Below the pieces are notes generated by a model that saw only the letters and a program-made list of their open reading frames with translations, was not told the DNA's origin and made no database searches. A stretch of 26,808 nucleotides of DNA from a virus (lineage: Duplodnaviria; Caudoviricetes): the IMG/VR virus record IMGVR_UViG_3300020043_003701, positions 1-26,808 of that record; one strand, 5' to 3'. The first letter of the stretch is position 1. Every line of letters begins with the position of its first letter. The translations under genes and the position numbers were made by a program. Of this stretch, positions 1-14,896 are shown piece by piece.

Positions 1-1
1 A

Positions 2-286
2 AGCTCCGATTATAAAAAGTTTGAGCCTTGCGCCCCTTTTGAATGGGCGGCACTATGGGCGGCAATGGAGGCAAGCCCCGCCGCATGGATAGAAACCACG
101 GAGGATATGTATTGGCATATGCTTGAATGCGTCCCGCCCCGCGCTATGAATGGGGGGCGCTTTTTGGTAGGCGAAGCTAATCACCACAATGGCGACGGTG
201 AAAGTGTTTACGCTTCATTCATGCAGCATGGCGGCAAATTTTTTGCAAAGTATGAAACCGTCAAACAATTTAGGGGCGAAGCATGA
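2..286 (+). CDS. Small early phage protein, DUF1419-like (probably 5'-truncated)
   Basis: Frame is open from nt 2; motif WIETTEDMYWHMLECVPP...FLVGE resembles the DUF1419 W-x-E...Y-x-x-MLE-x-x-PP pattern (recalled, not searched); ends in the AGGGGCGAAGCATGA junction. Confidence 0.7.
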   Translation, partial: SSDYKKFEPCAPFEWAALWAAMEASPAAWIETTEDMYWHMLECVPPRAMNGGRFLVGEANHHNGDGESVYASFMQHGGKFFAKYETVKQFRGEA

Positions 287-462
287 ATTTTGAGCAAAAG
301 GAAATTTGCGCCGTTTTGGGCTTTGCGGGGCAATTGCGCCTAAATATCCGCAATGAGCAAGGCGGGGCGACAAAGTGGCTAAACATAAGCGAAGCGCAAG
401 CGCGGGAAATTTTGCGCGTTTTGGGCGATAACGCAAAGGCGGTGCAACATGGCAAAAATTAA
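283..462 (+). CDS. Hypothetical early protein, 59 aa (not in ORF track)
   Basis: ATGA overlap with upstream stop, AGGGG RBS; MNFEQKEICAVLGFAGQLRLNIRNEQGGATKWLNISEAQAREILRVLGDNAKAVQHGKN fills the gap exactly. Confidence 0.75.
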   Translation: MNFEQKEICAVLGFAGQLRLNIRNEQGGATKWLNISEAQAREILRVLGDNAKAVQHGKN

Positions 463-688
463 AACCGTTACCTATACGCTCCCCGCTTTTTGGGCTTGCG
501 CTTTGATAAATAGCGACGAAAGCGGCATGAGCGACGAAGAAAGCGAAGCATTGCAAGCATGGCAAGAAAGCGAAGCCGTGGGCGCTTGCGTGGGTGTAAC
601 GGATAGCGAATTTTTCGCCCCGTGGCATGACGCAATTGCCCTTGCTTTGCCTTGCTCTTGCCTTGAATTTACATTTTTAAAGGGGTAA
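449..688 (+). CDS. Acidic small early phage protein, 79 aa
   Basis: RBS AAGGCGGTG; YTLPAFWACALINSDESGMSDEE resembles a recurrent small phage protein family; D/E-rich centre. Confidence 0.8.
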   Translation: MAKIKTVTYTLPAFWACALINSDESGMSDEESEALQAWQESEAVGACVGVTDSEFFAPWHDAIALALPCSCLEFTFLKG

Positions 689-691
689 ACC

Positions 692-886
692 GTGAAAACT
701 TTTCTATTTTCTGATTCTGATGTATGGCATTTTTCTATTGAAGCCGCCACGTTTAAGGGGGCATTGCTTAAAGCAAAAGCCATTTTCGGCATTGCCGTGG
801 GCTTGCGTTGCGTTGCATATCATGGCGCAAGCCGTGATTATCGGGCAAGCGCCACGGGCTATGAATGCAGCATAAGAGAAATTTAA
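692..886 (+). CDS. Hypothetical early protein, 64 aa
   Basis: GTG start after AAGGGGTAAA RBS; tiles between neighbours. Confidence 0.75.
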   Translation: MKTFLFSDSDVWHFSIEAATFKGALLKAKAIFGIAVGLRCVAYHGASRDYRASATGYECSIREI

Positions 887-896
887 GGGGTAAAAA

Positions 897-1043
897 ATGA
901 CGGTATCAACTGAAAAGACAATTCAAGGCGCGTGGCGGGTTTCGGCTATTGTGGGCGGTTATCTGGTGCAAGAGCAATATTTTGGGTATACAAAACGCGA
1001 AGCCGTGGCAAGGTTCAAAGCGCAACACAAAGGGGGCAAGTAA
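897..1043 (+). CDS. Hypothetical early protein, 48 aa (not in ORF track)
   Basis: AAGGGGTAAA RBS then ATG; MTVSTEKTIQGAWRVSAIVGGYLVQEQYFGYTKREAVARFKAQHKGGK; TAATG overlap with next gene. Confidence 0.8.
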   Translation: MTVSTEKTIQGAWRVSAIVGGYLVQEQYFGYTKREAVARFKAQHKGGK

Positions 1044-1306
1044 TGCAAGCATGGCTACACCACAAAGGCGGGGAAAACGGGCCATTTTTGACGGAGCGCG
1101 TAACGGTTAAAGAGAAGCCGTTACCGTGGCAAGAGCGCGGGCTTATGTATACGGCCACGGGTTACGGGCGCAAGATACCCACGCGCTATATGGTGCAAAG
1201 CGGGGGCAAGTGGCGGCGGGTGTATTGCTGCATTTTTTCTAATATCGGCACGCTCTATATCGGCAAGCTATCGCCGCAAAGCGTAACCGTACAGATTGAA
1301 CACTAA
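1043..1306 (+). CDS. Conserved-type small early phage protein, 87 aa
   Basis: Start reassigned to ATG 1043 (AAGGGGG RBS, TAATG coupling); TATGYGRKIPTRYMV...WRRVYCCIFSN resembles a recurrent phage early family. Confidence 0.85.
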   Translation: MQAWLHHKGGENGPFLTERVTVKEKPLPWQERGLMYTATGYGRKIPTRYMVQSGGKWRRVYCCIFSNIGTLYIGKLSPQSVTVQIEH

Positions 1307-1318
1307 AAAGGGGCAAGC

Positions 1319-1600
1319 ATGAAAAAACAATTCAAGATTAGCGAAGCGGGGGCGCGGCTCTATGCGGCGGGGGTTTCATACCATGCCCACGGCTACACAA
1401 AAAACGCAAGCGGAGAAAGCCTTTTTCAGTTTTTTAAGCTATGCAAAGCGCCCACGGCGGGGCAAGTGGCGGAGCTTTTGAGCTTTTGCCCCCATGTTCA
1501 AATTGTAGAAAGCTCCGCGCAATACGCGCCAGAATTAAAAAGGGCGGTTGCACTTTTTCCCCGCGCTGCATGGTATAGAAAGCAAGGGGCGCAAGCATGA
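1319..1600 (+). CDS. Hypothetical early protein, 93 aa
   Basis: AAGGGGCAAGC-ATG start; coupled to next gene by ATGA. Confidence 0.8.
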   Translation: MKKQFKISEAGARLYAAGVSYHAHGYTKNASGESLFQFFKLCKAPTAGQVAELLSFCPHVQIVESSAQYAPELKRAVALFPRAAWYRKQGAQA

Positions 1601-1779
1601 AACCGTTGATTTTTGGCAAGTGGCATTTTTGGCAAGCCGTGGGCGGCTTTTTGCTATCGGATGAAAACACAAAGCGGCTTTTGAGCTTTAAAACAATTGA
1701 CGCTGCCGTAAATTTTCTATTTTTTGAAGATAGAGAAGCGGCGCGGTATATCAACAAAGCGGCAAAGGGGCAAGCATGA
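1597..1779 (+). CDS. Hypothetical early protein, 60 aa
   Basis: ATGA overlaps at both ends with junction motif. Confidence 0.8.
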   Translation: MKPLIFGKWHFWQAVGGFLLSDENTKRLLSFKTIDAAVNFLFFEDREAARYINKAAKGQA

Positions 1780-1982
1780 AAACCGATTACGAAACAACGG
1801 GCAAGCTATACAAAAAACTAGAAGCCTACACAAAGGGCAACGCTTCGCAAGCCATGCCCGATACGGCGGCGCTCTATTATTTCGGCTCTACCGTACAGTT
1901 TAAAACGTGCAAGAGCTTTAAAGCGTTTTTAGAGCAAAAGCACAAAGGGCATTTTTTCAAAGTTCAAAGGGGGCAAGCATGA
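1776..1982 (+). CDS. Hypothetical basic early protein, 68 aa
   Basis: ATGA overlaps at both ends with junction motif. Confidence 0.8.
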   Translation: MKTDYETTGKLYKKLEAYTKGNASQAMPDTAALYYFGSTVQFKTCKSFKAFLEQKHKGHFFKVQRGQA

Positions 1983-2155
1983 AGAAAAGCATTGCGGCGG
2001 GTAACGTGGGCGCTCTTACGCATGGCGTGGCGGGTTTATGGCGTGTTTTGTCAATTGACGGGGCAACGCTTACACTTGAAAACATAGAAAACGGGCGCAA
2101 GCTATGCACCGTGGCGGGTAACTTTTGGGCTTTGCTTGATAGCTTTGAACCGTAA
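1979..2155 (+). CDS. Hypothetical early protein, 58 aa (not in ORF track)
   Basis: AAGGGGGCAAGC-ATGA start; MKKSIAAGNVGALTHGVAGLWRVLSIDGATLTLENIENGRKLCTVAGNFWALLDSFEP; stop is 15 nt before the terminator. Confidence 0.8.
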   Translation: MKKSIAAGNVGALTHGVAGLWRVLSIDGATLTLENIENGRKLCTVAGNFWALLDSFEP

Positions 2156-2170
2156 CCGATAAACCTAAGC

Positions 2171-2199
2171 AAGCGGGGGCGCTTTCCCCCGCTTTTTTT
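2171..2199 (+). terminator. Rho-independent terminator of the small-gene operon
   Basis: Stem AAGCGGGGG / CCCCCGCTT, loop CGCTTT, run of 7 T; outer pairing AACCTAA (2162-2168) / TTAGGTT (2206-2212). Confidence 0.9.
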
Positions 2200-2249
2200 G
2201 GTTTATTAGGTTAGTAAGCGCTAACTATCAAAAGCCCACAAAGCGCAAG

Positions 2250-2612
2250 CCATGCGGCGGCGCAAGGTTGCAAGCGTGGGCGGGTATTGATAGCAGCGCG
2301 GCGCGTGGGCTTTGCGTGACGCATGGGCGGCTTATATGGGCGCGGCGGCTTTGTGGCGGCTTTGCATATAAAAGGCGCAAGCATGGCGGCGCGGTGTATC
2401 GGTCAAAAGCGGCGCGGCGGCGGTCAAAAAGGCGCGGCGGCGTGGCGTGGGCAAGGTTAAAAAGCGCGGTTTTAGGCGCTTTGCGTGGGTTTCATGCGTG
2501 GCGGCGGGTTATCCGTGGCAAGGGCTAGAAACCCCGCAAAACGGGCAAAAAGCGCGGCGCGGCGTGGCGTGGCGGCGAAGCGGCGCGGCTTTGTGTAGAG
2601 CGTGGCGGCGGG
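2250..2612 (+). repeat. Non-coding, G-skewed degenerate repeat tract of GCGYG/GCG units interspersed with short A-tracts
   Basis: GCGCG GCGCG GCGTG GCGTG GCG at 2552-2574; AAAAAGCGCGG at 2459 and 2547; CGGTCAAAA at 2400 and 2421. Confidence 0.8.
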
Positions 2613-2626
2613 GTTTTTTGTATATG

Positions 2627-2639
2627 AATCAAGCACTTA
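2627..2639 (+). promoter_or_regulatory. Putative IHF binding site
   Basis: AATCAA-GCAC-TTA matches WATCAA-N4-TTR, with an upstream A/T tract (TTTTTTGTATAT). Confidence 0.6.
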
Positions 2640-2664
2640 CACGCGGTTTGCGATATTTTTCTAC

Positions 2665-2693
2665 CCGTGAAACACAAAAAAAATGTTTCACGG
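2665..2693. repeat. Perfect 10-bp inverted repeat around an A-tract
   Basis: CCGTGAAACA-CAAAAAAAA-TGTTTCACGG. Confidence 0.85.
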
Positions 2694-2757
2694 CACTAAA
2701 AAAGCGGTTATTTTTTGACCCCCACCACCCGAGGTTTTTGGAAAAAAAAATGAAGGT

Positions 2758-2937
2758 CTAATTTTCCGCTGGAACTTTTTTTTTGAATTCCAGCACCAAA
2801 TGAGGCTCAATATTTTTTTTCTCACCTTTGTAACCACTTGCGTAAGCAGCCCTTGACACTGCTAGAGCCTTTGCCTTGGTATCGAATGGGCCTTTCGACC
2901 CCCAATACCATTTACCTTTGACGTTACGCAGTGGCAT
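2758..2937 (-). CDS. Small basic phage protein, 59 aa
   Basis: Start reassigned to ATG 2937; MPLRNVKGKWYWGSKGPF...RAAYASGY resembles a recurrent small phage family. Confidence 0.75.
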   Translation of the reverse strand: MPLRNVKGKWYWGSKGPFDTKAKALAVSRAAYASGYKGEKKNIEPHLVLEFKKKVPAEN

Positions 2938-2941
2938 GGGA

Positions 2942-3349
2942 TTACTTGAGGAAGCGCAGCTTGTAGATGGTTGAGTCCACCAAAGCTGCAATCTCGTCTG
3001 CAATGTTCTGCAATTCGCTGTCTTGAGGGAAATTGCCTGAGTTACGGCAGCGAGCCAACTCGTCTTTCAGGTACATCATGTATGACAGGGGTTCTTCTGC
3101 CAGCTTAAACACAGGGCGGTAATCAGTCAACAGACCGTACTTACCTTGGAACGCCTCAACAAATCCGTCCAACAGACCCCCTATGTCTTCGTAAAAACTT
3201 TTGAGTGCTTTATGAGCCGAGTAGCTGGTCGTGGAGAAATGCAGGATGTGAGCGTTGGTGACGCTGTGCAAGAAGCACATCACCATGTCCATCACAGGGT
3301 CGGAGTTCTGTTGGAGTTGTTGCTCAACGCTGGCTGTATATTTCTTCAT
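2942..3349 (-). CDS. Ferritin/Dps-like four-helix protein (DUF5856-like)
   Basis: AHILHF-x4-YSAHKALKSFYE...LDGFVEAFQGKYG...ELQNIADEI...TIYKLRFLK, with His/Asp/Glu spacing as in Dps-type ferroxidase sites. Confidence 0.8.
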   Translation of the reverse strand: MKKYTASVEQQLQQNSDPVMDMVMCFLHSVTNAHILHFSTTSYSAHKALKSFYEDIGGLLDGFVEAFQGKYGLLTDYRPVFKLAEEPLSYMMYLKDELARCRNSGNFPQDSELQNIADEIAALVDSTIYKLRFLK

Positions 3350-3689
3350 TCCAGATTTCCTCGTAGATTGGGTCGAATGGGATAGGGACTTCGGCAGGCC
3401 ACATCCCTGATTGGGTCAATTTTCTCACGGTTCTGTAATGGGCGACAACCCATAGCTTCATTCGTTGTTCACGACTCAATAGGTTGCCTTGGTCAATGGC
3501 GTGGTGACAGGTTGGGCAAAGGGCCGCAATGTGGCTGTCATCAGCTTTGATTGACCTACCCTTGCCTCCACCCCAATTGGTGTGAGCAGCCTGTACGCCG
3601 TAATCTGAGCCACAGGATTGGCAGGATAACTCCCTTACCGCCTTGAGCAGCTTGGGGCTACGGACGTATTCGTGCTTGGGGTACATCAT
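3324..3689 (-). CDS. Zn-binding HNH-like putative nuclease (DUF968/DUF1364 YbcO-like)
   Basis: CQSCG...AAH...GKGRSIKADD...ALCPTCHHAID. Confidence 0.8.
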   Translation of the reverse strand: MMYPKHEYVRSPKLLKAVRELSCQSCGSDYGVQAAHTNWGGGKGRSIKADDSHIAALCPTCHHAIDQGNLLSREQRMKLWVVAHYRTVRKLTQSGMWPAEVPIPFDPIYEEIWNEEIYSQR

Positions 3690-3865
3690 TTATTGGACTC
3701 AGCGTTGTAAACCTCGACGCATTTGAATTGCATACGCCTTGGAGCAAATAGATTGATGCTTTCAGCCACCCGAAAGCACTCAGCAGATGTCGCCAAGTTT
3801 GGGACTGTCACAACATTTGCGCTATTGCCATAGTAGAGCGACATAACCAATAGCCATGATTTCAT
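3686..3865 (-). CDS. Hypothetical protein, 59 aa (not in ORF track)
   Basis: ATGA overlaps at both ends; MKSWLLVMSLYYGNSANVVTVPNLATSAECFRVAESINLFAPRRMQFKCVEVYNAESNK. Confidence 0.7.
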   Translation of the reverse strand: MKSWLLVMSLYYGNSANVVTVPNLATSAECFRVAESINLFAPRRMQFKCVEVYNAESNK

Positions 3866-4149
3866 GCTTCACCTCTTGCTCGGATTGCCTCGGCGCAATG
3901 TTGTGCCATCCACTCACTGCCCATACGCAAAGCTGTATGTTCACATTCTTTTGCACACGCTTCTCGCTCCTCCTTAATTGCCAATCTTGCTATCTTTACG
4001 GCATGACCAGCAAACTCCTCGCGCTCCTTTTGAACACCTCGGTTATAAGCCTCGGCTATCAATAACTGGATGCGCTCATGCAATAGCTTGGCATCGCTTT
4101 CAAGGATGGATATGCCAAAGTGTTCGGCCATCATGCGGCTGTGACTCAT
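3862..4149 (-). CDS. Mosaic nin-region protein (EREACA...CA-x-AIRARG type)
   Basis: KEEREACAKECE...CAEAIRARGEA C-terminal module; ATGA coupling. Confidence 0.8.
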   Translation of the reverse strand: MSHSRMMAEHFGISILESDAKLLHERIQLLIAEAYNRGVQKEREEFAGHAVKIARLAIKEEREACAKECEHTALRMGSEWMAQHCAEAIRARGEA

Positions 4150-9133: not shown

Positions 9134-9385
9134 ATGAAAAACCTAACCAGCAGTTTCATTCATTACCTTGATGAATGGTCAACAGAAACTTACCCTGACG
9201 TTCTGGTGAACTATGAATTCTCAGAAGGCGACAAGTCAGTGGGCGAACCAGACTCATTTGAGATTTGTGTTATTCGCAACAAAAAAGACATTTGGGCCGA
9301 CCTCACGCCTTCCGAACAAGATGAGATTGAGCAATACTGTGAAGTTGACATGAAACGAGTCATTGAAGAATGGAATCAGCCATGA
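9134..9385 (+). CDS. Acidic hypothetical protein, 83 aa
   Basis: AGGA RBS; first gene of plus-strand operon; no HTH, so not a CI. Confidence 0.8.
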   Translation: MKNLTSSFIHYLDEWSTETYPDVLVNYEFSEGDKSVGEPDSFEICVIRNKKDIWADLTPSEQDEIEQYCEVDMKRVIEEWNQP

Positions 9386-9573
9386 ACAACACTACCCGTA
9401 TGTACCCACGCACAATGGACGAAGCATTCCCAAACACTGTTGAACACAACGCCATGCTTGAGCGTTCAGTGTGGTTTGAAGCCCACACTCCAAAGGAAAT
9501 CAGTACAGAATTTTGGGGCTATGTGGCACTTTCTTTCTTTGCTGGCTACCTTTTCTTCAAGATTTGGGGATAA
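9382..9573 (+). CDS. Small protein with C-terminal TM helix, 63 aa
   Basis: TTRMYPRTMDEAF motif; ATGA overlap. Confidence 0.75.
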   Translation: MNNTTRMYPRTMDEAFPNTVEHNAMLERSVWFEAHTPKEISTEFWGYVALSFFAGYLFFKIWG

Positions 9574-9574
9574 C

Positions 9575-9781
9575 ATGGATGCCCAGATTTTGTTGGACAA
9601 AGCAAAGACTGCTTCTGAATTTCATTCAAATGAAGCCAATGACAGACTTGCATTCAGGGTTGGCTACCTTGAAACAACAGTCAGACAGCTATGCCACTTG
9701 CTTGAAGACACCGAAGAAATCATGTACCGCCAACGCGAATTGATTGAACAAATGAAAAAAGGTCATTCCGCAGACCTGTAA
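9575..9781 (+). CDS. Hypothetical coiled-coil protein, 68 aa
   Basis: DRLAFRVGYLE motif; GGGGA RBS; start reassigned to 9575. Confidence 0.7.
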   Translation: MDAQILLDKAKTASEFHSNEANDRLAFRVGYLETTVRQLCHLLEDTEEIMYRQRELIEQMKKGHSADL

Positions 9782-9807
9782 TTGCGGTTTTTAAACGAAA
9801 GAAGAAA

Positions 9808-10410
9808 ATGGGTTTTATTGCAAAAGACAAAGGTAATGCTGATTTCAAACGCATTCCAGTTGGCTCTCACGTTGCTCGTTGCTACCTCTTGGTGGACATG
9901 GGCGAACAACTCCAAGACGGCAAGTATGGTCAAACCGTACAACACAAAATCCGTTTGGGTTGGGAAGTGTTCGGAGAAGACGAAACAGGCGCACCCCTGA
10001 CGGTCGAAATTGAAGGCGTACAGCGTCAAATGACCATTGGGAAGACCTACACCCTATCCCTCAACGAAAAGGCTGGTCTACGCAAGGATTTAATCTCTTG
10101 GCGCGGTCGTGATTTCACACCCGAGGAGCTGGAAGGCTTCGACATCACAAACATCTTGAATGTTTACTGTATGTTGAACATCACCACCAGCGAAAAAGAC
10201 GGCAAGACATACACCAATATCTCCGCCATCACTCCGCTTCCATCTTCCATGAAGAACTTGAAGCCACAACCAGACCATGAAGTTGTCATGTTCAACCTTG
10301 ACGAACCTGATTGGCAAGTGTTTGAGGCTTTGCCTGATTGGTTGGCCGACACTATCAAGAAGTCCCCACAGTACGCAGAATTGGCCGCAATGCCACGCGA
10401 AGGGTTCTAA
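9808..10410 (+). CDS. NGO0469-like phage replication / ssDNA-binding protein
   Basis: P-x-G-x-H-x-ARC-x-x-x-VD-x-G-x-Q...YTLSLNEKA-x-LRKDL-x-SWRG-x-x-FT-x-EEL-x-GFD. Confidence 0.75.
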   Translation: MGFIAKDKGNADFKRIPVGSHVARCYLLVDMGEQLQDGKYGQTVQHKIRLGWEVFGEDETGAPLTVEIEGVQRQMTIGKTYTLSLNEKAGLRKDLISWRGRDFTPEELEGFDITNILNVYCMLNITTSEKDGKTYTNISAITPLPSSMKNLKPQPDHEVVMFNLDEPDWQVFEALPDWLADTIKKSPQYAELAAMPREGF

Positions 10411-13498: not shown

Positions 13499-14001
13499 TT
13501 CTTGCTGTTACCGCGAGAGCCGAACCAATAACCGATGATGCCACCAAGCATAGCCATTTCATCTTCGCTGAAAATCTCATTGCCGACTTTCACCAAGTCT
13601 TCCACACTCTTAATCATGTCTGGATGTGTCCACACATAGTAGCCAAGACCAGCATTGATGAATACAAGCTCTAGGACGAACAAATAGGTGACGATTGGAC
13701 GCACAGTACCAACAAAGGTAGAAACCCACGGCGCGGCCTTTTCCAGCACCTTTGCCTCATGCAAATAAGCAGCCTGAGTCATAGCAGCGTCAGCTTGGAT
13801 GGAAACTTGGTCGGTTCTCATCTCCTCGACCTTGGCTTGGGCAGTAAATCCAGCCGCAGCTAGAGCAAGCTCACGCTCTGTTTGAATACGAGCCAACTCA
13901 GCTTCGTGCTTTTGGTCTGCTTTGCTTTGGAATAGCTCAATTAGTTTTGGAAACATGGACAGCAATAAGCCGCCAAGGGTAGAAAATAAAGATAGCATCA
14001 T
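13495..14001 (-). CDS. Putative holin (GTA 3-TM holin-like)
   Basis: W...VRP-x-VTY and IIGYWFGSR motifs, hydrophobic segments, adjacent to lysozyme. Confidence 0.75.
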   Translation of the reverse strand: MMLSLFSTLGGLLLSMFPKLIELFQSKADQKHEAELARIQTERELALAAAGFTAQAKVEEMRTDQVSIQADAAMTQAAYLHEAKVLEKAAPWVSTFVGTVRPIVTYLFVLELVFINAGLGYYVWTHPDMIKSVEDLVKVGNEIFSEDEMAMLGGIIGYWFGSRGNSKK

Positions 14002-14192
14002 TCGCCTTTCGGTAGTTCAGGTTGTTCAAACTGTTCTATCTTTTTCTGTAATCGCTTTTCCAAATCGGCCATGCGCTTGTCGCGCCTATCCATCTCAATG
14101 AACATCTTGGTGACGATTGGTGTGACGATGAGGATGATTGCCAATATTAGGCAAGTCAGGCCAACAATCAATCTGTAAATGAGTTTATCCAT
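13998..14192 (-). CDS. Single-TM coiled-coil protein, 64 aa (lysis cassette)
   Basis: Start reassigned to MDKLIYR; N-terminal TM then charged coiled coil. Confidence 0.7.
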   Translation of the reverse strand: MDKLIYRLIVGLTCLILAIILIVTPIVTKMFIEMDRRDKRMADLEKRLQKKIEQFEQPELPKGE

Positions 14193-14896
14193 ACGGCCCA
14201 CAGTTCCAGAACGAATAGAAGCGTCAGAAACACCGCCGCTGCCAGTTCTACCCTTTCCAGATGCTCCTCCTCGCGTAGCCATGAATCCTGCTGCTTTCTG
14301 ATACGTTCGCGCTCACGCCTTGCGGCCTGCTTATCCTTGGCATTTTCGTATATCTTGTTAAAGTTGTCCCACAATGGGCCAAGCTGCGGAGGAACATGAG
14401 CGCCACGCATCATGCCACTGAGCTTGATATACGCCCCATCCAACTCATGCCTGATTTGAGATAGCAAAAGGATGTCTCGCGGGTCTGGTCTATCCATTGA
14501 ATAAACCTCCTCGGATTTTGTGTCGTACAGCTCCGACAGTTCTCGATGATGGTGATAGAAGTCACCAATATGAGTCACAAACTGCTGGACAATTTCTGCC
14601 TCGGTTGGAATGTGCTTGATAAACACTTCCTTTGGCTTTGGCTTGGGAGGCTCATCAGATGAGCTTTGAATATGCGGAGCTGGTTCTGTTTTATGTGGAG
14701 CAGCTCCGAACAATCCACGAATAAGTCCCCAAATGCCCTTAACCTCTTTTACGATGGCTTGGGCATCCTCTGCGGCCTTCTTGATTTTTTGGACTTGTAC
14801 TTTGCCATCAGACAAAGCCTCGCAACAGTATTGGATGCCGCTGAAAGCACCCTGCATTGCCTTAATAGCTAACCCAATTGTGATTGGGTCAAGCAC
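14168..14896 (-). CDS. Helical protein with C-terminal TM, 242 aa (lysis-associated, function unknown)
   Basis: MLDPITI amphipathic N-terminus, coiled coil, C-terminal hydrophobic helix. Confidence 0.8.
   Translation of the reverse strand: MLDPITIGLAIKAMQGAFSGIQYCCEALSDGKVQVQKIKKAAEDAQAIVKEVKGIWGLIRGLFGAAPHKTEPAPHIQSSSDEPPKPKPKEVFIKHIPTEAEIVQQFVTHIGDFYHHHRELSELYDTKSEEVYSMDRPDPRDILLLSQIRHELDGAYIKLSGMMRGAHVPPQLGPLWDNFNKIYENAKDKQAARRERERIRKQQDSWLREEEHLERVELAAAVFLTLLFVLELWAVWINSFTD

Follow-up and report, generated by a model that had tools for sequence, protein, structure and literature searches.

A restricted, lineage-specific sequence vocabulary in the terminal segment at the predicted cos end of HK97-like siphophage genomes

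The 26,808-nucleotide (nt) stretch of viral DNA analysed here (IMG/VR record IMGVR_UViG_3300020043_003701, positions 1 to 26,808; hereafter the window) begins with a segment of about 2.7 kb, the island, whose short-word vocabulary differs from that of the remainder of the contig, the core. The island is a real feature that is found throughout the window's clade, a family of freshwater phages. In relatives it extends to the predicted cohesive-end site (cos) of an HK97-like genome, and several lineage-specific vocabularies occupy the same position. Our preferred reading, to which we assign a probability of roughly 0.6, is that the island is a swappable cos-end module, likely the first DNA to enter the cell and likely purged of short asymmetric restriction motifs. 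An earlier reading made from the letters alone (the sequence-only reading) had proposed a restriction-invisible leading segment, possibly a long terminal repeat. The lineage-specific vocabularies, the swapping of modules, and the DNA-modification genes in the same slot of other relatives go beyond that account.

By direct count, positions 1-2760 contain 14 copies of CAG/CTG, 18 of GAC/GTC, none of TCGA, and 42 of GCAAG/CTTGC, and the following 360 nt contain 17 copies of CAG/CTG, in agreement with the hand counts of the sequence-only reading. The remainder of the contig predicts 92 CAG/CTG and 73 GAC/GTC for positions 1-2757. Some of the GCAAG copies belong to a common ribosome-binding or stop-start junction (repeat families D2-D7). 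Of the 512 canonical 5-mers, 129 are absent from the 2.7-kb island, as compared with 22-47 from each of eight core chunks, and G+C content goes up, not down, in islands. We trained Markov models on positions 1-2100 and on position 4000 to the end, and sought the break in held-out sequence. The break falls at 2750 (order 2) or 2731 (order 3), which places a sharp border at approximately 2700-2750 and upholds the abrupt end that had been noticed near 2760. From position 4001 to the end, the held-out score of every 500-nt bin is that of core, and a second such segment is absent from the window. An assembly chimera at this border, which the sequence-only reading had raised against itself, is excluded, since an independent Logan contig covers positions 922-3888 in one piece and the identical junction is present in IMG/VR relatives, where the island was found as well. 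The sequencing runs that we searched, as contigs only, held at most 0.29 of the window's words.

The sequence-only reading had also held that the bias acts on the DNA and not through protein or codon need, and this claim stands. When the ten island proteins were recoded at random with synonymous codons at core codon usage, they carried 68.7 ± 5.9 copies of CAG/CTG (minimum 52 in 500 runs), as compared with the 13 actually present. CAG/CTG is depleted at all three codon positions, and the non-coding positions 2156-2720 contain 1 copy as compared with 18.9 expected. Given that the bias extends to all codon positions and to non-coding DNA, it is a property of the DNA, and a codon or protein requirement is excluded as its cause.

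The contig ends inside the island, and we located the far border in relatives, which we denote by L or G numbers. In a complete relative of 40,006 nt (G020), the island occurs once, between the genes for the 59-amino-acid and DUF5856 proteins and terS-terL, with an HNH gene inside it. One motif marks the start of 17 of 80 terminase loci, and 20 of 77 HNH loci end just short of it. Contigs that run across both ends keep a 10-nt sequence between them, with 22 exact junction matches. We identify this 10-nt sequence, from the pattern of contig ends, as cos with a short cohesive overhang, and thus as the mark of fixed genome ends. A 3' cohesive end, such as that of HK97, is lost from both contig ends upon end repair, and the loss of the 10 nt at both ends suggests that the overhang has 3' polarity. 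Since the island reaches cos on the HNH side, it is predicted to be the right, last-packaged genome end. The distance from inner border to cos is 2,201-3,806 nt in 14 distinct contigs, or 6-10% of a 38-40 kb genome. The terminal position proposed in the sequence-only reading is therefore borne out in relatives. Its long terminal repeat is ruled out, since complete G020 contains a single copy that ends at the 10-nt cos, with normal vocabulary directly past it.

Both edges of the island are abrupt. At the inner border, the vocabulary score per 100 nt goes from -7.9 bits to +9.3 bits in the space of two bins (39 loci). Across cos, it falls at once from +14 to between -9 and -21 per 200 nt (12 loci), and the bias is constant up to the inner border with no fading. 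Because cos is no boundary in the circular or concatemeric state, we infer that the responsible force acts on linear virion DNA. The gene order HNH, cos, terS, terL, portal, protease, capsid was read from open reading frame (ORF) translations in L013, these genes lying beyond the window. HNH was assigned by Pfam and terL by tblastn; portal, protease, and capsid were named by position and by what we take to be their likeness to known proteins. Together with the lambdoid replication and tail genes that family scans detect in the window, a 26.8-kb virus fragment, this order marks the phage as an apparent lambdoid/HK97-like cos-packaging siphophage, consistent with the lambdoid type named in the sequence-only reading.

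Several other observations were made near these genome ends. A tRNA-Thr(TGT) gene lies between cos and terS at positions 76-172 of L050, L055, and L062 (3 of 10 loci scanned), and L013 contains two consecutive capsid-like ORFs of 448 and 338 amino acids (1022-3444) that are alike by eye. In L003, a DnaB-like fragment of different composition (13600-14370) stands after the island, where cos is expected, and the genome end was likely misjoined there. In L002 (10582-15145), two type A islands abut head to head at about 13608, each with a DUF968 homolog on its outer side; the assembly has probably fused two related phages at a short word that they share.

The vocabulary is not the same in all relatives. 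There are at least three strong types (A, that of the window; B; and C), and beside these there are several vocabularies seen singly, weakly biased islands, and slots without bias. Over window positions 2698-3691, L304 shows 96.9% identity, yet it has a type B island; L306, at 94.8% identity, has a type E island, and L307 has type A. The island of L305 looks mosaic. In a DUF5856 tree (FastTree, 45 rows), the types are intermixed and island and no-island phages are paired. The HNH tree partly follows type, with B and C forming one clade each, G falling within A, and F within E. Homologous genes take on the score of whichever island type hosts them, indicating that they have been recoded in place. 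Substitutions that create avoided words number 361 in type A islands, as compared with 697 expected, and 561 in cores, as compared with 544 expected. To judge from these comparisons, the segment is exchanged as a module whose vocabulary travels with the module and not with the core.

The loss that is specific to islands falls mostly on asymmetric words with A or T among G/C, and 30 of the 32 most depleted 4-mers of type A are non-palindromic. TCGA occurs 5 times in type A as compared with 86 expected and is 3.4-fold enriched in type B; likewise, CCGG occurs 5 times in type A as compared with 95 expected and is 2.4-fold enriched in type C. In each of types A, B, and C, words made up of G/C alone or of A/T alone are enriched, and alternating words are lost. 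The islands of L025 (72 core, 3 island) and L114 (50 and 1) are purged of GATC, which their cores keep, L117 has 31 copies, and genome-wide avoidance of this word differs among type A members. Nine published asymmetric motifs, taken from papers on foreign hosts and dominated in their totals by two short ones, occur at 0.38 of the core rate in type A, 0.61 in type C, 0.32 in other strong islands, and 1.06 in no-island slots. We found no extra island loss of 6-bp palindromes: their observed/expected ratio in the window is 0.37 in the island and 0.30 in the core, and the island/core ratios are 0.27/0.32 for type A, 0.51/0.33 for B, and 0.65/0.61 for C. Extra avoidance of Type II palindromes in the island is therefore rejected. 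Since these palindromes are avoided genome-wide, early protection would not cover them. Positions 2761-26808 of the window contain 4 CCGG, no CCWGG, and 6-bp palindromes at 0.30 of expectation, and GATC is absent from the whole window.

The inner border carries the pattern A-T(7-11)-AA, at window positions 2736-2752 within a longer conserved stretch (Table 1). Our sample was 73 hand-picked, related loci, 7 of them too short to score, and the bias threshold of 0.42 was chosen after seeing the data. The pattern is present in 40 of 44 loci with a bias of at least 0.42 (one of the 40, L254, is a false match to a terminator) and in 0 of 22 below it, and it matches once in 500,808 nt of cores. The element is a candidate entry-pause signal and swap joint. 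In 17 of 39 islands, matches to what we take to be the IHF consensus lie no more than 600 nt from the border, and these predicted sites occur at 0.73 per kb as compared with 0.11 per kb in cores, again among related loci; IHF-like sites near the border, including that at window 2627, are only a hint. A cos-like GGGTCAA at the inner border was dropped as a candidate, being present in only some type A and B loci and with some pattern matches elsewhere. Two recurrent non-coding motifs, one of them a 12-bp near-palindrome, lie just inside the border, are common to several vocabulary types, and are possible protein-binding sites. A first group of loci with recurrent border motifs comprises L123, L127, L117, L119, L011, L207, L163, and L202, and a second comprises L003, L103, L111, L115, L116, L118, and L157. 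L228, L231, L286, and L293 have island anatomy or the border motif and vocabularies outside all modelled types.

We compared 142 distinct DUF5856-HNH intervals to see what else occupies the slot. The border motif is present in 46 and in degenerate form in 1 more (47 islands), 30 carry a ParB-like gene, and 65 are shorter than 900 nt; island and ParB cassette never occur together (0 of 142). In 29 of the 30 ParB-like slots there is also a methylase, PAPS-reductase, TET/JBP (with or without ADDT), TAGT, or Mom partner, suggesting that the ParB cassettes modify DNA. Among 32 near-complete records, which were picked after some cassettes had been seen, a modification gene was found in 1 of 16 island genomes as compared with 11 of 16 others (Fisher p 0.0006, a value that ignores kinship). 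PF02086, PF01507, and PF12851 were left out of this genome-wide search, and PF01555 and PF05869 were found in 0 of the 32 genomes. ParB-like genes with PAPS-reductase, some with GNAT or TctC, occur in L124, L125, L133, L151, L220, L224, L234, and L242 and are candidate DNA-modification systems. In L137, L145, L149, L168, L169, and L176, the ParB-like gene stands with TET/JBP, TAGT, ADDT plus amidotransferase, FkbM methylase, or Mom.

The sequence-only reading had compared the segment to the first-step-transfer DNA of T5, and this likeness is evident in the words themselves. Over 136 4-mers, the shift of T5 first-step DNA correlates with that of the window at a Spearman rho of 0.51, as compared with -0.44 to 0.09 for windows of the core, and the held-out T5 score flips sign at 9.5-10 kb, within the annotated injection-stop signal (9140-10149). 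As in T5 and BF23, the segment is terminal and makes up a similar fraction of the genome (about 8% there, 6-10% here), carries small genes, has a repeat-rich non-coding inner end, and shows a 4-mer shift of equal direction that ends at its inner boundary (9.5-10 kb in T5, 2.7 kb in the window). In T5, however, the segment is a 10-kb direct repeat, whereas the island is a single copy at a cos end, belongs to a 38-40 kb lambdoid/HK97-like genome, exists in several exchangeable vocabularies, and includes the HNH packaging gene. Its bias is also about twice as strong (4-mer root-mean-square 1.55 as compared with 0.77 for T5). The A1, A2, and Dmp families were not found among the ten window proteins in Pfam, PHROGs, or NCBIfam, with no direct comparison to T5 proteins. 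The island appears to work like the T5 first-step region but stands outside that family: it lacks a terminal repeat, ends at cos, and comes in vocabularies that can be exchanged.

Other systems share parts of this arrangement. In T5-like phages, restriction is described as being decided by sites in the first-injected region (PMC10644984), and in Murciavirus Type I sites are said to count only there (PMC12455610). The Autographiviridae (T7 ocr region; Murciavirus, PMC12455610) likewise have small genes of variable content that a host-type promoter transcribes inward, and one island gene family is common to phiPsa17. T7 and phiPsa17, however, show a weak vocabulary shift or none, whereas the island phages lack a phage RNA polymerase and have a sharp conserved border. 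In conjugative plasmids the leading region (PMC13478746) also enters first, carries small accessory genes, has a higher G+C, and shows no added depletion of 6-bp palindromes, but it enters single-stranded and is codon-adapted, whereas the island bias is codon-independent and covers non-coding DNA. Cluster E mycobacteriophages have an unexplained tetranucleotide outlier in their last 5 kb, which was read as possible gene transfer (PMC4841201). Together with L5, RcCWillis, and the metagenome-assembled DSL-LC05, they resemble the island phages in having a terminal or terminase-adjacent 2.5-5 kb with distinct words. Rho with the window's shift is 0.42 at the right end of L5, 0.46 in RcCWillis, and 0.58 in DSL-LC05, and in the series of controls these phages score 0.32, 0.44, and 0.55, respectively; GP88, a gene family of the L5 right end, is present in some islands. 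The border motif of the window's clade was not found in the L5 stretch, the RcCWillis stretch, or DSL-LC05. The phage Chi record, which does not end at cos, served as a non-terminal control only. The shifted regions lie at L279 17500-20001 (RcCWillis right end), the last 3 kb of L283 (L5), and L278 33500-36000 (DSL-LC05); the RcCWillis right end is nearly devoid of CATC/GATG. For the window's clade, or for lambdoid cos phages, our search of the open literature turned up no account of such a segment, subscription journals and supplements being outside its scope.

On the preferred reading, the last-packaged right end would be ejected first into the cell, and entry would pause near the A/T-tract element, leaving only these 2-4 kb exposed. 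Starting at a promoter some 0.6-0.8 kb off the tip, host RNA polymerase would then transcribe the inward operon, and the small island proteins would blunt Type I/III/IIG/BREX-type defences before the core enters. Because it would be exposed, a first-entering segment would be purged of the motifs met in the host range; each lineage would avoid those motifs that belong to hosts encountered in its past, with the enriched words as the remainder. The order of entry, the pause, the host, and the functions of the genes are what we infer here. A host-type promoter reading inward is predicted about 0.6-0.8 kb from the genome end in 7 type A-like loci, and the inward promoter pattern occurs in 6 of 36 islands, all type A-like. 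A scan of GTDB for the host returned six loci, mostly on short contigs of metagenome-assembled genomes, 0 of them with an island and 0 of use as evidence for a host. A broader proposal, which we hold only tentatively and think somewhat improbable, is that small cos siphophages have their own two-step injection and trade a portable end cassette as an alternative to chemical genome modification. Such a cassette would combine a vocabulary specific to the host range with early genes against host defences and a stop signal built of A-tract and IHF site; the vocabulary would be a record of host restriction motifs, and the signature would mark first-injected DNA in unrelated cultured phages, among them T5, L5, and RcCWillis.

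Several results weigh against the preferred reading. Anti-restriction families (Ocr, ArdA, KlcA/ArdB, Dar) were found for 0 of the 10 window proteins and 0 of 65 island proteins of relatives in Pfam, for 0 of 40 proteins in NCBIfam, and for no island protein scanned in PHROGs or PADLOC. The nine published motifs are not depleted in type B (1.10 of the core rate), and the purge, which extends across trinucleotides, is wider than a few motifs would require. Neither island nor cassette occupies 65 of the 142 slots, and the mutual exclusion of the two is partly trivial, given one slot under a packaging size limit. L231 and L286 have the border element and little bias on the pooled model, and p-values overstate significance, the loci being related. 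Some non-terminal windows elsewhere reach a rho of 0.30-0.35, and there is little or no T5-like shift at the leading or right ends of T7 (0.25), phiPsa17 (0.0), and HK97 (approximately 0). The nearest cultured terminase, at 60.5%, is that of Methylophilaceae phage P19250A, which has no island and whose right end has a rho of approximately 0. Finally, last-in-first-out ejection is disputed for lambda in vitro, though most phages are said to follow it (PMC10287942).

Among other explanations, one that we regard as unlikely is that the module encodes a sequence-preferring nuclease or other DNA-attacking protein that destroys host DNA, and that the segment, like T5 with A1, lacks its target words. 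This would fit a vocabulary that follows the module and not the core, as well as the variation of genome-wide GATC avoidance within type A, and the means by which T5 and BF23 spare their own DNA is described as still open (PMC10644984). However, HNH is the only gene family that every island type shares, and the scan of island proteins turned up no nuclease family besides it. Mosaic islands such as that of L305 occur, and the loss of 30-odd 4-mers is unlikely to result from one enzyme. It is also rather improbable that the bias reflects packaging termination, in which a filling head would ready terminase and an HNH helper and nickable words would be purged from the last kilobases before cos. 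The bias does stop at cos, on the last-packaged side only, with HNH inside the island and types B and C having one HNH clade each. Nevertheless, no-island relatives with the same HNH-cos layout are unbiased, and HNH clades mix types. Termination would also leave unexplained the sharp inner border at a conserved element, the inward genes, and the likeness to T5, in which the first-step DNA lacks a cos.

A physical role is less probable still. Here, the clustering of A/T and G/C runs would give stiffness or bend for late packaging, tail loading, or ejection, as the enrichment of pure words in the three main types, the A-tract border element, and the IHF-like site might suggest. Yet single words flip from absent to enriched between types, the pattern is missing from no-island relatives, and of 8 island windows, 7 show no single-strand folding beyond dinucleotide content (z between -1.6 and +1.2; -2.7 in the other). 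A local mutation or repair bias on the exposed end, without selection on words, would account for the deficit of substitutions that create avoided words equally well as selection does, but G+C rises, the spectrum varies by lineage, and mutational processes are not known to be confined between cos and a fixed motif; we consider it very improbable. Least tenable, and largely refuted, are recent acquisition from a donor with this vocabulary, suggested by the reading given to the cluster E outliers (PMC4841201), and codon adaptation of highly expressed early genes, as in plasmid leading regions, which are codon-adapted and not target-depleted (PMC13478746): no profiled locus is type A throughout, which answers the sequence-only reading's question about such a donor, the core packaging HNH gene and non-coding DNA share the vocabulary, homologs are recoded in place, all frames are affected, and the window's other inward small-gene operon (9.1-11.8 kb) is unshifted (rho -0.08).

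The visible part of the island consists of ten small plus-strand ORFs, a hairpin, and about 500 nt of non-coding DNA, followed by minus-strand core genes (Table 1). Comparison with L305, which aligns to window positions 1-464 at 89.7% and then runs about 1.4 kb further to cos, suggests that about 1.4 kb of the segment (the rest of the first gene, promoter, HNH gene, and cos) lies beyond position 1.

Table 1. Features of the visible island and the adjoining core in the window
Positions	Strand	Feature	Basis
1..2750		Visible part of restricted-vocabulary terminal segment; contig ends inside segment	Counts, Markov score
2..286	+	5'-truncated ORF, C-terminal part of a 203-amino-acid (aa) gene in L305	ORF list, L305
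283..462	+	59-aa ORF, no family	Library scans
449..688	+	79-aa DUF6926-like ORF, also in weak-bias islands	E 5.7e-6, 26.9 bits (cut-off 27)
692..886	+	64-aa ORF, no family	Library scans
897..1043	+	48-aa ORF, frequent in type A islands	ORF list, relatives
1043..1306	+	87-aa phrog_3436 protein	PHROGs E 5e-18
1319..1600	+	93-aa ORF, no family	Library scans
1597..1779	+	60-aa ORF, frequent in type A islands	ORF list, relatives
1776..1982	+	68-aa ORF	ORF list, relatives
1979..2155	+	58-aa ORF ending inward operon; family occurs in islands of several vocabularies	ORF list, relatives
2159..2206	+	Hairpin whose 3' arm is T-rich; predicted to terminate inward operon	Inverted repeat I4
2207..2710		G+C-rich non-coding spacer, bias among the strongest	Markov score; short direct repeats D1, D6
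2627..2639	+	IHF-consensus match, predicted site	Motif scan
2711..2752		Conserved inner border element: T-tract, C/G-tract, T5, and A9 tract on plus strand	Comparison of loci
2758..2937	-	59-aa core gene adjoining border, normal vocabulary	ORF list, Markov score
2942..3349	-	DUF5856 core gene, anchor for locating the slot in relatives	E 4e-19

The truncated first ORF has a weak DUF1419 match (E 0.0073, 16.9 bits as compared with a cut-off of 23). A homolog of the 87-aa protein is gp01, the first gene of the T7-like phage phiPsa17 (41% identity, E 3e-12); the protein has 276 homologs, and 0 of 120 among the matches listed carry a functional name. Nothing informative about the function of island proteins was returned by Pfam, PHROGs, NCBIfam, PADLOC, PDB sequences, the ESM Atlas, or Rfam. 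The non-coding spacer contains an inverted repeat of 19 bp at 2656-2702 (I15). The inward strand of islands is mostly G-rich, as for a Chi-like polarity, but a conserved word was not found. Elsewhere, collagen-like Gly-Pro-Thr repeats in tail genes explain other composition outliers in L188 (2200-3400) and L193 (450-1150).

A restriction-poor leader with staged entry is established for T5-like and T7-like phages. If the preferred reading is true, an exchangeable leader cassette in small lambdoid cos phages would make this a widespread strategy that can pass between phages. Natural comparisons exist within the clade, where near-identical backbones carry different vocabularies, a modification cassette, or nothing. 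As a candidate stop signal, the 40-bp conserved border would be far simpler than the 1-kb region of T5, whose mechanism is still open, and L5 and RcCWillis, cultured phages with a similar shift, are possible test models. The signature would also be a predictor of the first-entering end from sequence alone, which bears on the last-in-first-out dispute, and it would indicate dozens of unannotated candidate counter-defence genes.

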